The position numbers and the translations under genes were made by a program. Shown one piece after another: positions 1,635-44,462 of a DNA stretch of 64,000 nt. Under the pieces are notes generated by a model. It was not told where the DNA came from. It worked only from the letters and a program-made list of their open reading frames with translations, and made no database searches. This stretch comes from Smithella sp. GTDB taxonomy: Bacteria > Desulfobacterota > Syntrophia > Syntrophales > Smithellaceae. Within the stretch, counting starts at the first letter, position 1. The number at the start of each line of letters is the position of its first letter. The DNA lies in contig JAAZHX010000216.1 in NCBI GenBank assembly GCA_012510495.1, forward strand, positions 22 through 64,021, read 5' to 3'.

Positions 1635-2399
1635 ATGAATAGAAAATTCCCAATTCTGGAATATGACCCAACCCGTGTTGCTTTTATCGAGCCTTCAAAG
1701 GTCATTACGCCTTTGGATATGCCTGAGTATTGTGTAGTCTGTTTTTTCAGGGAAGTGATCGATAAAGTAGTAATCGAACACAATGCAAAGGTATTGGTAA
1801 CAGACTATTGGGAAGATGGTCCTCATCCCATTTATGAAATTGAATACTGTGATCAGAGATTGGCATTTTTCCATCCAGGTGTTGGCGCGCCACTGGCCAC
1901 GGGCCTGCTCGAAAAAGTCATCGCTTATGGCTGTCGGGAATTTATGGTTTGTGGAGGTTGTGGAGTTCTTGATAAACATATGGCGGTTGGCAGTTTACTG
2001 GTTGTATCCAGCGCAATCCGCGACGAAGGCGTTTCGTATCATTACCTGCCCCCAAGCCGGGAAGTGTTTGCGCACGAAGCGGGGGTGAAAGCCCTTGCAA
2101 ACACCTTGAGTAATATGAACATTCCGCACCATATCGGTAAAACCTGGACGACCGATGCGCCTTTCAGAGAGACACCGGATAGGATAGCCATGAGAAAAGA
2201 GGAAGGCTGTCTTGCTGTAGAAATGGAAAGCGCGGGCATGATGGCAGTTGCGCAATTTCGTGGTGTAAGTTTAGGACAGATATTATATGGTGGGGACGAT
2301 TTGAGCTGTGTGGAATGGGATGAGCGTTCATGGCAATCAAGAACCACCATACGCGAGAAGCTTTTCTGGCTGTGCGCGGATGCAGTTTTGACGATTTGA
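1635..2399 (+). CDS. Nucleoside phosphorylase family protein (PNP/UDP_1 fold, uridine phosphorylase-like)
   Basis: The translation carries the family-typical AVEMESAG motif and a GVGAP segment. An alternative GTG start at 1620 lies inside attC C, so the ATG at 1635 is preferred. Confidence 0.75.
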   Translation: MNRKFPILEYDPTRVAFIEPSKVITPLDMPEYCVVCFFREVIDKVVIEHNAKVLVTDYWEDGPHPIYEIEYCDQRLAFFHPGVGAPLATGLLEKVIAYGCREFMVCGGCGVLDKHMAVGSLLVVSSAIRDEGVSYHYLPPSREVFAHEAGVKALANTLSNMNIPHHIGKTWTTDAPFRETPDRIAMRKEEGCLAVEMESAGMMAVAQFRGVSLGQILYGGDDLSCVEWDERSWQSRTTIREKLFWLCADAVLTI

Positions 2400-40833: not shown

Positions 40834-41087
40834 GTTCGCCTCTTTGCTTTCTCCAGAATTTCAATCAAACTGACCACCTTGTCTTTGGGCTGCGCCTCCG
40901 CAAAGCGTTTCCGCTCCTCCTGCGTCAGGTTTTCCTCAAGCAGCGACGCCACATCAAAAGCGGCTTGCCAGCAAAAAATAATCCGCGCGCAGGGCAGATC
41001 CCCCGATTCCCGCAAACAGTAGGCAAATGTCATTTCGTCGCCCAATTTGGGGCAGCGGGTGATTTTATGATCATGCGGGGTTTTCAT
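40830..41087 (-). CDS. Small Cys-containing hypothetical protein
   Basis: 85-aa ORF whose stop overlaps the rarA start by 4 nt. Confidence 0.5.
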   Translation of the reverse strand: MKTPHDHKITRCPKLGDEMTFAYCLRESGDLPCARIIFCWQAAFDVASLLEENLTQEERKRFAEAQPKDKVVSLIEILEKAKRRT

Positions 41088-41104
41088 TGCACGTCAGCTT
41101 GACG

Positions 41105-41145
41105 AAAAAAAGAAAAACCGTCAAGAAATTTTATTTCCCTGACGG
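41105..41145 (-). terminator. Rho-independent terminator after trpB2
   Basis: On the minus strand, CCGTCAGGGAAAT-aaa-ATTTCTTGACGG is followed by TTTTTCTTTTTTT. Confidence 0.65.
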
Positions 41146-41216
41146 CTTTCGTAGGAAACGGCCTGCCGCCCGCAAGGGTGGTTCGAATCGTTCCCTGCAT
41201 CATATCATTGAAGTCC

Positions 41217-42578
41217 TTACAGCCTTGGGAAATCCTTAATGGCTTTCAGGGCTCTCTCGATTTCGTGATCCGGCAGTTCGTAGGCCTCCAGTTTGCCCGA
41301 CAGGTAGGCATCATAGGAGACCAGATCCACCAGGCCGTGGCCGCTCCAGTTAAAGAGAATGATCTTTTCTTTTCCTTCTTCTTTGGCACGCATCGCTTCA
41401 TCCACAACAGCGGCCAGAACGTGGTTGGTTTCCGGCGCGGGAATGAAGCCTTCGGAACGGGCCCATTTGACGCCCGCATCGAAGGTTTTGAGTTGATCGT
41501 AGGCTCTGGGCTCAATCAGTTTTTCCCGGACCAGATGGCTGACGATGGGCGCCATGCCGTGATAGCGCAGACCGCCCGCGTGAATCGGCGCGGGGATGTA
41601 GTCGTGGCCCAGCGTGTACATCGGAAGCAGCGGCGTGGATTTGGCCAGGTCTCCGAAATCGTAGGCGAACGGGCCTTTGGTCATGCTGGGACAGGACATG
41701 GGCTCCGCTCCGACAATCTTCACATTCTTGCCGTGGATCTTGTCGCAGACAAACGGCGTGGAAATGCCGGCAAAGTTGCTCCCGCCACCGCAGCAGCCCA
41801 TGACCACATCGGGATAAAGGCCAAGCTTTTGCATTTGCTTCTGCGCTTCCAGACCGATAATCGACTGGTAGAGAATCACGTGATTCAACACGCTGCCCAG
41901 GCCATAGTGCGTGTTCGGGCTGCTCACCGCATCTTCAATGGCTTCGCTGATGGCAATGCCCAGGGAACCGGGAGTATCCGGGTGTTTTGCCAAAACATCG
42001 CGTCCGATCTCGGTCAGATTGCTGGGACTGGAAATGCATTCCGCTCCCCAGGTATTCATCATCAGACGGCGGTATGGTTTTTGTTCATAACTGACCCTGA
42101 CCATGTAAACCCGGCACGCCAGATCAAACATCTGGCAGGCCATCGCCAGGGCGCTTCCCCACTGACCTGCGCCGGTTTCCGTGGTCATGCGCTTAGTTCC
42201 GGCCTCCCGGTTATAGTAGGCCATCGGAACCGCCGCATTAGGTTTGTGCGATCCGGCAGGGCTGACGCCTTCATTTTTATAATAAATCTGCACGGGACAG
42301 CCCAGCAGTTTTTCGAAATTGCGCGCCCGGTAAAGGGGAGACGGCCTCCACAGAACGTATTTTTGCAGGACCTCGTCGGGAATGTCAATCCAGCGCCGGG
42401 CGGAGGCTTCCTGCTCGATGATGTTCATAGGGAAAATAGCCGCCAGATCCTGCGGCGTGACCGGCTGATGCGTGCCGGGGTGCAGGGGCGGTTTCATCGG
42501 CGTGGGCATATCCGCCATGACATTGTACCACTGCCTGGGTATTTCATGATCTTCCAATAACGTTTTGACCTGTTCCAT
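41217..42578 (-). CDS. trpB: TrpB2-type tryptophan synthase beta-like PLP enzyme
   Basis: The N-terminal extension IPRQWYNVMADMP and the motifs GSHKPN and TETGAGQWGSA are characteristic of TrpB2. AAGGAG lies before the ATG at 42578. Confidence 0.9.
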   Translation of the reverse strand: MEQVKTLLEDHEIPRQWYNVMADMPTPMKPPLHPGTHQPVTPQDLAAIFPMNIIEQEASARRWIDIPDEVLQKYVLWRPSPLYRARNFEKLLGCPVQIYYKNEGVSPAGSHKPNAAVPMAYYNREAGTKRMTTETGAGQWGSALAMACQMFDLACRVYMVRVSYEQKPYRRLMMNTWGAECISSPSNLTEIGRDVLAKHPDTPGSLGIAISEAIEDAVSSPNTHYGLGSVLNHVILYQSIIGLEAQKQMQKLGLYPDVVMGCCGGGSNFAGISTPFVCDKIHGKNVKIVGAEPMSCPSMTKGPFAYDFGDLAKSTPLLPMYTLGHDYIPAPIHAGGLRYHGMAPIVSHLVREKLIEPRAYDQLKTFDAGVKWARSEGFIPAPETNHVLAAVVDEAMRAKEEGKEKIILFNWSGHGLVDLVSYDAYLSGKLEAYELPDHEIERALKAIKDFPRL

Positions 42579-42656
42579 CTCTTTTTTCTCCTTTACAAGA
42601 ATGATTCTCGGGTTCCTTTCAGCAAACGATTTTAGCGCCCGGTCCAAGCCGGGGCC

Positions 42657-42693
42657 AAAAAAAATGCCATGGGATTTTCTTCCCATGGCATTT
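42657..42693 (-). terminator. Intrinsic terminator of the trpB2 leader (attenuator)
   Basis: On the minus strand, AAUGCCAUGGG-aagaaaau-CCCAUGGCAUU (11-bp perfect stem) is followed by U8. It lies about 80 nt upstream of the trpB2 ATG. Confidence 0.8.
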
Positions 42694-42755
42694 CTAATCC
42701 ATTGACGAGTCACGGGAAGGAGCCTCCCTGCCCATGCTCGGTAACTTACAGGAGC

Positions 42756-42815
42756 CTACGGGCAGACATTCATCGCCTGCCACCACCAGTTGCTGTTGAA
42801 AAAACTTTTTACCAT
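42756..42815 (-). CDS. Trp-rich leader peptide (MVKSFFNSNWWWQAMNVCP)
   Basis: A 19-codon ORF with three consecutive TGG codons (42780-42788) lies upstream of the terminator and trpB2. Purine-rich GAAGGAAGG lies upstream of its ATG. Confidence 0.6.
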   Translation of the reverse strand: MVKSFFNSNWWWQAMNVCP

Positions 42816-43004
42816 TATCCGATAAACCTTCCTTCACATTTGGCACTTGCCTAACACAACCGTAAAAGAGATGTCAAGACTAATTTTGATGAACTCGTAA
42901 AAATGGTTTGCAGCCCCGTGCACTCCGGATGCGCGGTTATTCCGGCGCGCCTTGCCGTCGTATGCCAGGCGCGTCGGCCCGGATGCCCCTGTTGCCATTC
43001 ACCA

Positions 43005-44462
43005 TCATTTCGTTTCATTTGTCCCGATGCCCAAGGCCTTGGCGACGCCTTCGCCGTAGGCAGGATCAGCCTTAAGGCAGTTGCCGATATGACGGATTTT
43101 GATTTCCCGGGGCGCGTCGCCCATGGCCCGCGCCGTATTGTCGAAGAGCGCCTGTTGTTGCGCGTCGTTCATCAGACGGAAGAGCTTGCCCGGCTGTGTA
43201 TAATAATCGTCATCCTGGGGATAGTGGTCCGCGGCGCCGTCGAGCGCCAGCGGCGGTTCGCGCAGCTCCGGCCGGTCCTGCCATTCGCCATAGCCGTTCG
43301 GGTCATAACCAAGGGTTCCGCCCTGGTTACCGTCAACGCGCATGGCACCGTCGCGATGGTAGATGTTTGTCGCACAGCGCGGCGCGTTGACCGGAATCTG
43401 GTGATGGTTGACGCCGAGGCGGTAACGCTGGGTGTCACCATAGGAGAAGAGCCGCCCCTGCAGCATCTTGTCCGGCGAGAAACCGATGCCGGGCACAATA
43501 TTCGCGGGGTTAAAGGCCGACTGTTCGACCTCGGCAAAATAATTTTCCGGATTCCTGTTGAGCTCAAGAACGCCGACCTCGATGAGTGGGAAATCCTTGT
43601 GATACCAGACTTTGGTCAGGTCGAACGGATTGTAGGATATCTTGGCCGCGTCTTTCTCGGGCATGACCTGGATGAACAGCGTCCAGCGCGGAAAATCCTT
43701 GCGTTCGATCGCGTCGTAGAGGTCGCGCTGATGGCTCTCGCGGCATTTGCCGATCGCCGCCTCGGCCTCGGCATCGGTCAGATTTTTTATGCCCTGCTGA
43801 GTACGGAAGTGGAATTTGACCCAGAAGCGTTCGTTTCGCGCGTTGATCATACTGAAGGTATGGCTGCCGAACATGTGCATATGGCGGTAGCTTGTGGGTA
43901 TGCCGCGGTCGCTCATGGTAATGGTGATCTGGTGCAACGCTTCGGGCAGCGAAGTCCAGAAGTCCCAGTTGTTTTTGGCGCTGCGCAGGTTGGTGCGCGG
44001 ATCGCGTTTAACCGCGCGGTTCAGCCCGGGAAAACGCAACGGATCGCGCAGAAAAAAGACAGGCGTATTGTTGCCGACCAGATCCCAGTTGCCTTCTTCG
44101 GTATAAAACTTAATGGCCGTGCCGCGAATATCGCGCTCGGCGTCAGCCGCGCCGCGTTCGCCGGCCACCGTCGAGAAGCGCAGGAAGAGCTCGGTTTTCT
44201 TGCCGATCTGCGAAAAGATTTTCGCCTTGGTGTATTTGGTGATGTCATGGGTTACCGTGAAGACACCGTAGGCGCCGGAACCTTTGGCGTGCATGCGCCG
44301 TTCGGGGATGACCTCGCGGTCGAAGTGGGCCAGCTTTTCCAGGTACCAGACGTCCTGCAGCAGCTGCGGCCCCCGCGGGCCGGCAGTCAGCACATTTTCA
44401 TTGTCCGCAACGGGCGCTCCCGCGGCTGTTGTCAGTTTCTTTTTCCCGTCGTTCATCTTCAA
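43005..44462 (-). CDS. katA: Monofunctional heme catalase (small-subunit type)
   Basis: Typical motifs [31 protein letters not shown] and [14 protein letters not shown]. Confidence 0.95.

Follow-up and report, generated by a model that had tools for sequence, protein, structure and literature searches.

A probable tryptophan-sensing leader-peptide attenuator upstream of the stand-alone trpB2 gene in a Smithella-like member of the Syntrophales

Classical attenuation of tryptophan (Trp) biosynthesis is a textbook mechanism. In the E. coli trpL leader (RF00513), which controls Trp synthesis through the trpEDCBA operon, a short open reading frame (ORF) contains two consecutive UGG codons, and ribosome stalling at these codons selects the antiterminator among four RNA segments (pairings 1:2, 2:3 and 3:4). 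The his leader of Salmonella and E. coli (hisL) is built from six segments, in which the pairings A:B, C:D and E:F alternate with B:C and D:E ahead of a distal intrinsic terminator, and its ORF carries seven His codons. Leader-peptide Trp attenuators have also been predicted in Actinobacteria (PMC1262725), and the Bacteroid-trp motif (RF01692) of Bacteroidetes is listed as a cis-regulatory element that is not a riboswitch (Weinberg et al. 2010, PMC2864571). The gene trpB2 lies inside the trp operon in Geobacter (PMC2700814), and a separate regulatory demand has been discussed for stand-alone trpB2 (Merkl 2007, PMC1854888). Here we describe the leader of a stand-alone trpB2 gene on the minus strand of a 64,000-nucleotide (nt) stretch of DNA from Smithella sp. 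(NCBI GenBank assembly GCA_012510495.1, contig JAAZHX010000216.1), referred to below as the window.

Based on its sequence and its conservation in relatives, this leader is very probably a genuine Trp-sensing, ribosome-mediated leader-peptide attenuator that controls the monocistronic trpB2 of a Smithella-like bacterium of the order Syntrophales. It has the ORF with a run of cognate codons, the intrinsic terminator in front of the gene and the mutually exclusive pairings that characterize an attenuator. With E. coli trpL it would share the common principle, that is, consecutive UGG codons in a short ORF, a stall that selects the antiterminator and control by Trp, whereas the number of Trp codons (three instead of two), the number of segments (six instead of four) and the target (a stand-alone trpB2 instead of trpEDCBA) are different. 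In its predicted design, a six-segment relay like that of the his leader is applied to Trp, the principle itself being textbook knowledge. In contrast to hisL, the present leader has three Trp codons in place of seven His codons, is unrelated in sequence, and precedes a single salvage-type gene in the Desulfobacterota.

Comparison with the known RNA families places the element outside the catalogued ones. No Rfam family was matched at its threshold in a scan of positions 41000-43100, and in the same interval the RF00513 Trp_leader, RF01692 Bacteroid-trp and T-box models gave no match at E<=10; Bacteroid-trp, which belongs to another phylum and has another sequence, is set apart by this lack of a covariance-model match. 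The sole Rfam model that aligned end to end was RF00514 His_leader (42657-42799; 30.2 bits, E = 0.022), at a score below its gathering score of 49 and to a leader that contains no His codons; this alignment probably reflects a relay logic like that of the leaders of his, leu and thr. A search of the available literature retrieved no description of this Syntrophales element, and it is possible that an earlier delta-proteobacterial prediction exists (Lopatovskaya et al. 2010).

The leader ORF encodes the 19-residue peptide MVKSFFNSNWWWQAMNVCP and reads ATG GTA AAA AGT TTT TTC AAC AGC AAC TGG TGG TGG CAG GCG ATG AAT GTC TGC CCG TAG. The terminator AAAUGCCAUGGGA-AGAAAA-UCCCAUGGCAUUU (42693..42662) starts 62 nt past the leader stop, is followed by a U8 run that ends at 42657, and ends 78 nt before the trpB2 ATG. 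Its core AUGCCAUGGGA/UCCCAUGGCAU comprises 11 perfect base pairs, or 13-15 with an A-U extension. The initial annotation of the window had already proposed a Trp attenuator with a WWW leader (three consecutive Trp residues) before a stand-alone trpB2. The 19-codon minus-strand ORF with its three UGG codons is present as it was described, the 11-bp perfect hairpin with U8 that was placed about 65 nt past the stop is found at the distance given above, and trpB2 is indeed monocistronic with its own terminator-like site, between catalase and ATPase genes; the central claim of a Trp attenuator is strongly supported by the conservation, ORF maintenance and covariation described below.

The leader arrangement is more than a chance occurrence. 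The sequence TGGTGGTGG is found 59 times on both strands of the 2.8-Mb assembly, including 30 times in short stop-to-stop frames, and the copy in the leader is the only one that has both an ATG start and a hairpin with a T-run about 60-95 nt downstream. The folding energy of the leader, when compared with shuffled sequences, corresponds to z = -3.5.

Conservation of the element was analyzed in relatives, 39 of 41 of which have a trpB2 orthologue. Enough upstream DNA was available for 28 orthologous loci, drawn from the genus itself and from 15 further families of the order, and the same leader arrangement was found at 27 of them. The presence of Trp-rich mini-ORFs upstream of orthologous trpB2 genes, which the initial annotation had named as a check of its claim, is thereby confirmed, as these 27 loci carry both the leader and the terminator. 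The parts in common are a TTGACA box, a (T/G)(A/T)TAGG box and a WWW mini-ORF (once WRW and once WWWW), followed in the RNA by GGCAGRC...GYCUGCCC, CAUGGGCAGGGAAG...CUUCCCAUG, and GCCAUGGGAAG...CCAUGGC with subsequent U-runs. The lineage consensus of the second box is a poor match to TATAAT; its variants TGTTAGG, TGTTACG, TGATAGG and TATAGG recur 5' of both the trpB2 leaders and the trp-operon leaders described below.

A covariance model, termed R1, was built from the 27 orthologous leaders and used to search for further copies. At E<=0.001 it detected the element in 137 of the 151 genomes sampled from the class Syntrophia (about 110 at E<=1e-7), and the source genome has one strong match. Among 40 further strong matches, a trpB2 orthologue is located directly downstream in 37; of the three others, two are truncated where the contig ends. 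A collection-wide pattern scan (TGGTGGTGGCRGN{7,16}CYGCCC) hit at least 120 loci, which represent chance matches in GC-rich genomes; among the matches listed, none had the element or trpB2.

The reading frame of the leader is maintained in evolution. An in-frame start without an intervening stop is present in each of the 65 distinct orthologous leaders and UGGUGGUGG in 63 of them, and the ten codons before WWW are free of stops in 61 of 65 leaders in the leader frame, as compared with 26 and 37 in the two alternative frames. A single row of the 27-sequence alignment (L003, with UGG-CGG-UGG) deviates in the UGG columns. The peptide beyond WWW[Q/R] varies and the N-terminus differs between families: members of the genus have the tail QAMNVCP or QTKSVCP, and other families have RGDRTLPAGPSY, QAVT, QAMTGLSTGSPF or RAK. 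A frame that is kept open and hairpin nucleotides that are kept, together with a peptide that is not, constitute the signature of a regulatory leader ORF and not of a functional peptide.

These data bear on the possibility that the ORF encodes a functional small peptide, comparable to peTrpL of Sinorhizobium, or that a protein or ligand binds the hairpins, with a terminator that is not governed by stalling at UGG. Action in trans is described for leader peptides (PMC7298713), and the tail Q-T/A-x-x-V-C-P is conserved within the genus. This genus-level conservation is explained by the location of segments 1 and 2 inside the ORF; outside the family the tail is wholly changed while the RNA pairings stay, and the N-terminus is not conserved. 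As for a bound regulator, no T-box, riboswitch or other Rfam family was found at threshold in 41000-43100, and the sequence contains no TRAP-type (G/U)AG repeats. Moreover, the trp operon of relatives follows a codon run of the same design, and a leuA-like gene is preceded by a Leu-rich version. We give very little credence to a peptide- or ligand-based control.

The two states of the proposed attenuator are composed of alternative helices between six segments (Table 1). In the 66-sequence alignment, which was fitted to R1 and is thus biased toward the model structure, 91.9% of the cells of the terminated fold (1:2 + 3:4 + 5:6) are paired, with compensatory change at 17 pairs; all 500 shuffles scored lower on every measure, and 52% was the most that slid controls reached. 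Helix 1:2 (GGCAGGC/GUCUGCC, -11.2 kcal/mol) is 98.7% paired over 65 distinct sequences with two compensatory pairs, helix 3:4 (CGAGCAUGGG.AGGGA/UCCUUCCCGUG.CUCG, -20.1 kcal/mol) is 88-90% paired with nine, and helix 5:6 (-21.1 kcal/mol) is 91.6% paired with six. The read-through fold (2:3 + 4:5) is 88.6% paired and contains 52 compensatory cells versus 24 +/- 6 in shuffles. Its helix 2:3 (-17.5 kcal/mol) includes the column pair 62-107, which is UA in 33 sequences, CG in 23, UG in 7 and GC in 2, with no unpaired cell, and its helix 4:5 (CUUCCCGUG:CAUGGGAAG, -12.5 kcal/mol) is 90% paired in 65 sequences. An independent MAFFT alignment of 27 sequences gave the same pairing picture as the R1-fitted one. 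Compensatory changes support both alternative folds, through helices 1:2, 2:3, 3:4 and 5:6.

The promoter, leader translation, the logic of ribosome positions and the dependence on Trp are predicted from the sequence, and the proposed order of events is as follows. Transcription would start from a promoter about 40-60 nt upstream of the leader ORF. When Trp is scarce, a ribosome whose A site holds UGG would shield about 12-13 nt downstream, which corresponds to segment 1 and the loop and does not reach segment 2; segments 2 and 3 would then pair, segment 4 would be released to form helix 4:5, and in the absence of the terminator transcription would read through into trpB2. When Trp is plentiful, a ribosome at the UAG codon would cover segment 2, which would allow formation of 3:4 and subsequently of 5:6 with U8, and transcription would stop at 42657. 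After ribosome release, or without translation, helix 1:2 would form, followed by 3:4 and 5:6, again leading to termination.

The pairings had been arranged differently in the initial annotation, which adopted the four-region logic of the classical trp leader, with CUGCCCGU (42765..42758) and AUGGGCAG (42735..42728) as '1:2', CAUGG(G)CA:UGCCAUG, involving CAUGGGCA (42736..42729), as the antiterminator '2:3', and the terminator as '3:4'. These coordinates are exact and both pairings exist as located: CUGCCCGU:AUGGGCAG lies in relay helix 2:3, and the suggested antiterminator, which amounts to a 3:5 pairing, is possible in 93.6% of cells over 65 sequences. The wiring, however, has the wrong polarity. 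CUGCCCGU begins 14 nt past the last UGG, and a ribosome stalled at UGG, with its edge about 12-13 nt past the A-site codon, would fall short of it, whereas a ribosome at the stop codon would cover it and free AUGGGCAG for the terminator arm. Since it is the terminating and not the stalled ribosome that covers CUGCCCGU, such a scheme would lead to antitermination under plentiful Trp. Helix 3:5 is also weak (-4.9 kcal/mol versus -12.5 for 4:5, the better antiterminator, and -20.1 for 3:4), only two of its seven pairs show compensatory change, which is no more than in shuffles (318 of 500), and its sequence conservation is accounted for by the self-complementary CCAUGG core. As this arrangement additionally leaves out the conserved and covarying hairpins 1:2 and 3:4, we regard it as highly improbable.

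The ribosome logic of the six-segment relay was approximated by a truncated-transcript proxy, in which the leader is cut before segment 6 and the ribosome is placed on it; this calculation is crude and thermodynamic. The mean probability that the 5' arm of the terminator is sequestered was 0.78 with the ribosome on UGG versus 0.42 with the ribosome at the stop, and the difference was at least 0.2 in 45 of 65 leaders, in moderate agreement with the relay. The minimum free energy fold of the truncated transcript of the present leader, with the ribosome on UGG, contains another antiterminator, in which segment 2 pairs directly with segment 5 (CCCGU.GGC : GCCAUGGG) and 3:4 is nested as a passenger hairpin, giving a four-region design. 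Its total energy is practically that of 2:3 + 4:5 (-29.9 versus -30.0 kcal/mol) and its regulatory polarity is the same, but the pairing is not conserved: 76.4% of its cells are paired, a level reached by 488 of 500 shuffled partners, and at three of the eight pairs between 7 and 23 of 27 sequences cannot pair. This direct 2:5 antiterminator was rejected for its lack of conservation, and we consider it a most unlikely design.

Several observations weigh against the relay attenuator as proposed here. One orthologous locus (L029) does not have the element. A consensus promoter scan called no promoter at the TTGACA/-10 site, where the -10 box is off-consensus, and the Shine-Dalgarno sequence of the leader, at a long distance from the ATG, is weak or oddly spaced, with a weak signal in relatives (GAAAG). 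In the trpB2 leader of the type strain, Syntrophus aciditrophicus SB (G120, L206; 2054-2201, minus strand) the peptide is ...GWQWRLQ..., encoded with UGG CAA UGG; despite this W-Q-W, its hairpins and terminator are retained and it scores 51.4 bits with R1. The TrpB2 sequence of G120 is identical to ABC77733.1 of this strain. The CAUGGG/CCCAUG motif is repeated in segments 3, 4, 5 and 6, and cross-pairings that include 3:5 and 2:5 are possible. The 6-bp core CCCAUG/CAUGGG of helix 4:5 is nearly invariant and hence shows little or no covariation, so that this helix is neither supported nor contradicted by covariation. The 'no ribosome' proxy gave a sequestration of 0.67, which is not low. Finally, equilibrium folding of the full-length leader with ribosome masks always formed the terminator, whatever was masked, and the switch must therefore be kinetic, like that of other attenuators. 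In the comparison of alternative folds that the initial annotation had suggested, the truncated transcript gives a moderate contrast between stall and stop, and folding of the full leader does not discriminate between the states.

Related leaders of the same lineage control the trp operon itself. In two relatives (G006, L184; G020, L185) and in Syntrophus aciditrophicus SB (L187), trpEGDCFBA has a WWW or WWWW leader of its own, with the peptides MLNNWWWWSLTGRTVRR, ...NNWWWTCAGRIFRR and MNWWWQASIQGFVRR, and with tandem terminator-like hairpins (GCCGUGGAG...CUCCACGGC with a U-run, then GGCCGUGA...UCACGGCC with a U-run). These leaders score 40-51 bits with R1. They share with the trpB2 leader the Trp-codon ORF, a GCCGUGG.../...CCACGGC hairpin, U-runs, TTGACA and TATAGG, while they differ from it as separate paralogous elements with two tandem terminators, another segment 1/2 sequence and control over the whole pathway. 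The existence of these separate attenuators in relatives indicates that Trp-codon attenuation is the usual control of Trp synthesis in this lineage, and that trpB2 belongs to the Trp-starvation response. In other classes of Desulfobacterota, weaker R1 matches (35-49 bits) correspond to Trp-rich leaders before trpE, and one weaker match outside the class precedes a 56%-identical trpB2. In some other families (L188, L204), the leaders assigned to the trpB2 type have a U-run also after hairpin 3:4, by which one stall would relieve two terminators.

The target of the leader L188 itself is not trpB2. This leader (G150:C1:64200-68200, positions 1891-2051, plus strand; peptide MIRFDIENRNFWWWQAHIGLPM; 77.5 bits with R1) precedes genes for a PAC_bac protein (PF21758), a UbiX-like flavoprotein (PF02441) and a UbiD_N protein (PF20695), which would be a decarboxylase operon under Trp-starvation control. 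Another leader of this genome lies where a contig ends.

The coordinates of the leader and gene features are given in Table 1. The 453-residue product is full-length TrpB2, as it passes the curated cutoffs of NCBIfam NF009057 (719.7 bits, cutoff 366, residues 2-440) and TIGR01415 (628.4 bits, cutoff 518.85), and these scores exceed that of the match to the trpB1 model TIGR00263 (148.6 bits), which is under its cutoff of 392.45. The 90% cluster to which this TrpB2 belongs bears names such as 'Smithella sp.', which places the window in a Smithella-like member of the Syntrophales (class Syntrophia, Desulfobacterota); an exact look-up of the protein retrieved no recorded contig. The gene is flanked by a catalase gene upstream and a RarA/MgsA-type ATPase gene downstream, and on account of these neighbours trpB2 is taken to be monocistronic. 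Directly 3' of the U-tract of the attenuator, on the minus strand at 42604-42655, lies a GC-rich hairpin without a U-run (GCCCCGG CUUGGA CCGGGC); apart from the source genome, only the closest relative (L002) has it, and it shows no conservation beyond these two.

Table 1. Features of the trpB2 leader and transcription unit in the window, in the order of transcription
Feature	Position	Strand	Remark
-35-like box TTGACA, presumed leader promoter	42872..42877	minus	same distance kept in orthologous upstream regions; predicted from conservation
-10-like box TGTTAGGC	42849..42856	minus	15-17 nt after the -35 box; predicted
Possible Shine-Dalgarno GAAGGAAGG of the leader ORF	42827..42835	minus	11 nt before ATG; predicted
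Leader ORF (trpL-like), MVKSFFNSNWWWQAMNVCP + UAG stop	42756..42815	minus	19 codons, read from the sequence
Three consecutive UGG (Trp) codons	42780..42788	minus	columns (nearly) invariant in the 27-sequence alignment
Segment 1, GGCAGGC	42775..42781	minus	overlaps the last UGG
Segment 2, GUCUGCCCGUAGGCUC	42752..42767	minus	includes the stop codon; partner segment 1 or 3
Segment 3, CGAGCAUGGGCAGGGA	42725..42740	minus	partner segment 2 (read-through) or 4 (termination)
Segment 4, UCCUUCCCGUGACUCG	42706..42721	minus	partner segment 3, or the terminator 5' arm via CUUCCCGUG (antiterminator)
Segment 5, AAAUGCCAUGGGAAG	42679..42693	minus	terminator 5' arm and first loop bases
Segment 6, UCCCAUGGCAUUU, + U8	42657..42674	minus	terminator 3' arm (42674-42662), then U-tract
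Shine-Dalgarno of trpB2, AAAGGAGA	42587..42594	minus	strong, 8 nt 5' of ATG; kept at all orthologous loci
trpB2	41217..42578	minus	453 aa, stand-alone TrpB-like pyridoxal phosphate enzyme; profile matches
Terminator-like hairpin + T-run closing the trpB2 unit	41103..41150	minus	16 pairs, then CTTTTTTTCG

The remaining Trp genes of the source genome are incompletely represented in its assembly. The genes trpE, trpG, trpD, trpC and trpF were not found there by tblastn (E<1e-20), and only a trpB1-trpA piece is present, on the 1.7-kb contig C182, in an assembly rated 100% complete; the trp operon of this genome was probably left unassembled or unbinned. For this reason the operon leader is demonstrated only in the relatives. 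On another contig (C245, 2184 nt), a 99-residue ORF of the Trp_repressor family (PF01371, YerC/YecD-like) lies directly 5' of a fragment of a second, divergent trpB2-like gene, the product of which is 57% identical to TrpB2 over residues 5-59. This represents a different regulatory solution for trpB2, although it may stem from a contaminant of the bin (contamination 6.56%). A further leader of the source genome (L186; C224:26628-26742, plus strand) is Leu-rich (MFGFTTATILASALLTLLPGLALLRLLVKAACPPVLGRR), has the terminator GGGCCGTGGGCGAAATCCACGGCCTTTTTTT and precedes a leuA-like gene (MKKDKNRVYIFDTSLRDGEQSPG...); it has a weak R1 score (22.9 bits) and is probably a classical leucine attenuator.

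The role of TrpB2 is disputed, and the leader described here provides regulatory evidence from syntrophic Desulfobacterota that the enzyme would be made when charged tRNA-Trp is scarce. The gene would be controlled in parallel with the trp operon yet independently of it, through its own copy of the device. In Methanothermobacter, a remote trpB2 is reportedly regulated by TrpY/Trp as well. Control by Trp starvation is more in line with TrpB2 taking part in Trp synthesis or in the salvage of indole than with a function unrelated to these. The RNA element, being well supported, class-wide and not matched by Rfam, will be useful for genome annotation. As a tentative and rather unlikely extension, the trpB2 leader may be one branch of an uncatalogued, phylum-wide family of Trp relay-attenuators of the Desulfobacterota, with six segments and often two tandem terminators, which would define a Trp-starvation regulon comprised of the trp operon and stand-alone trpB2, joined in at least one genome by a decarboxylase operon of the UbiX/UbiD type. 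If true, such a regulon would point to a starvation-induced route that supplies indole or an indole-like substrate to TrpB2, and would make the disputed role of this enzyme directly testable.

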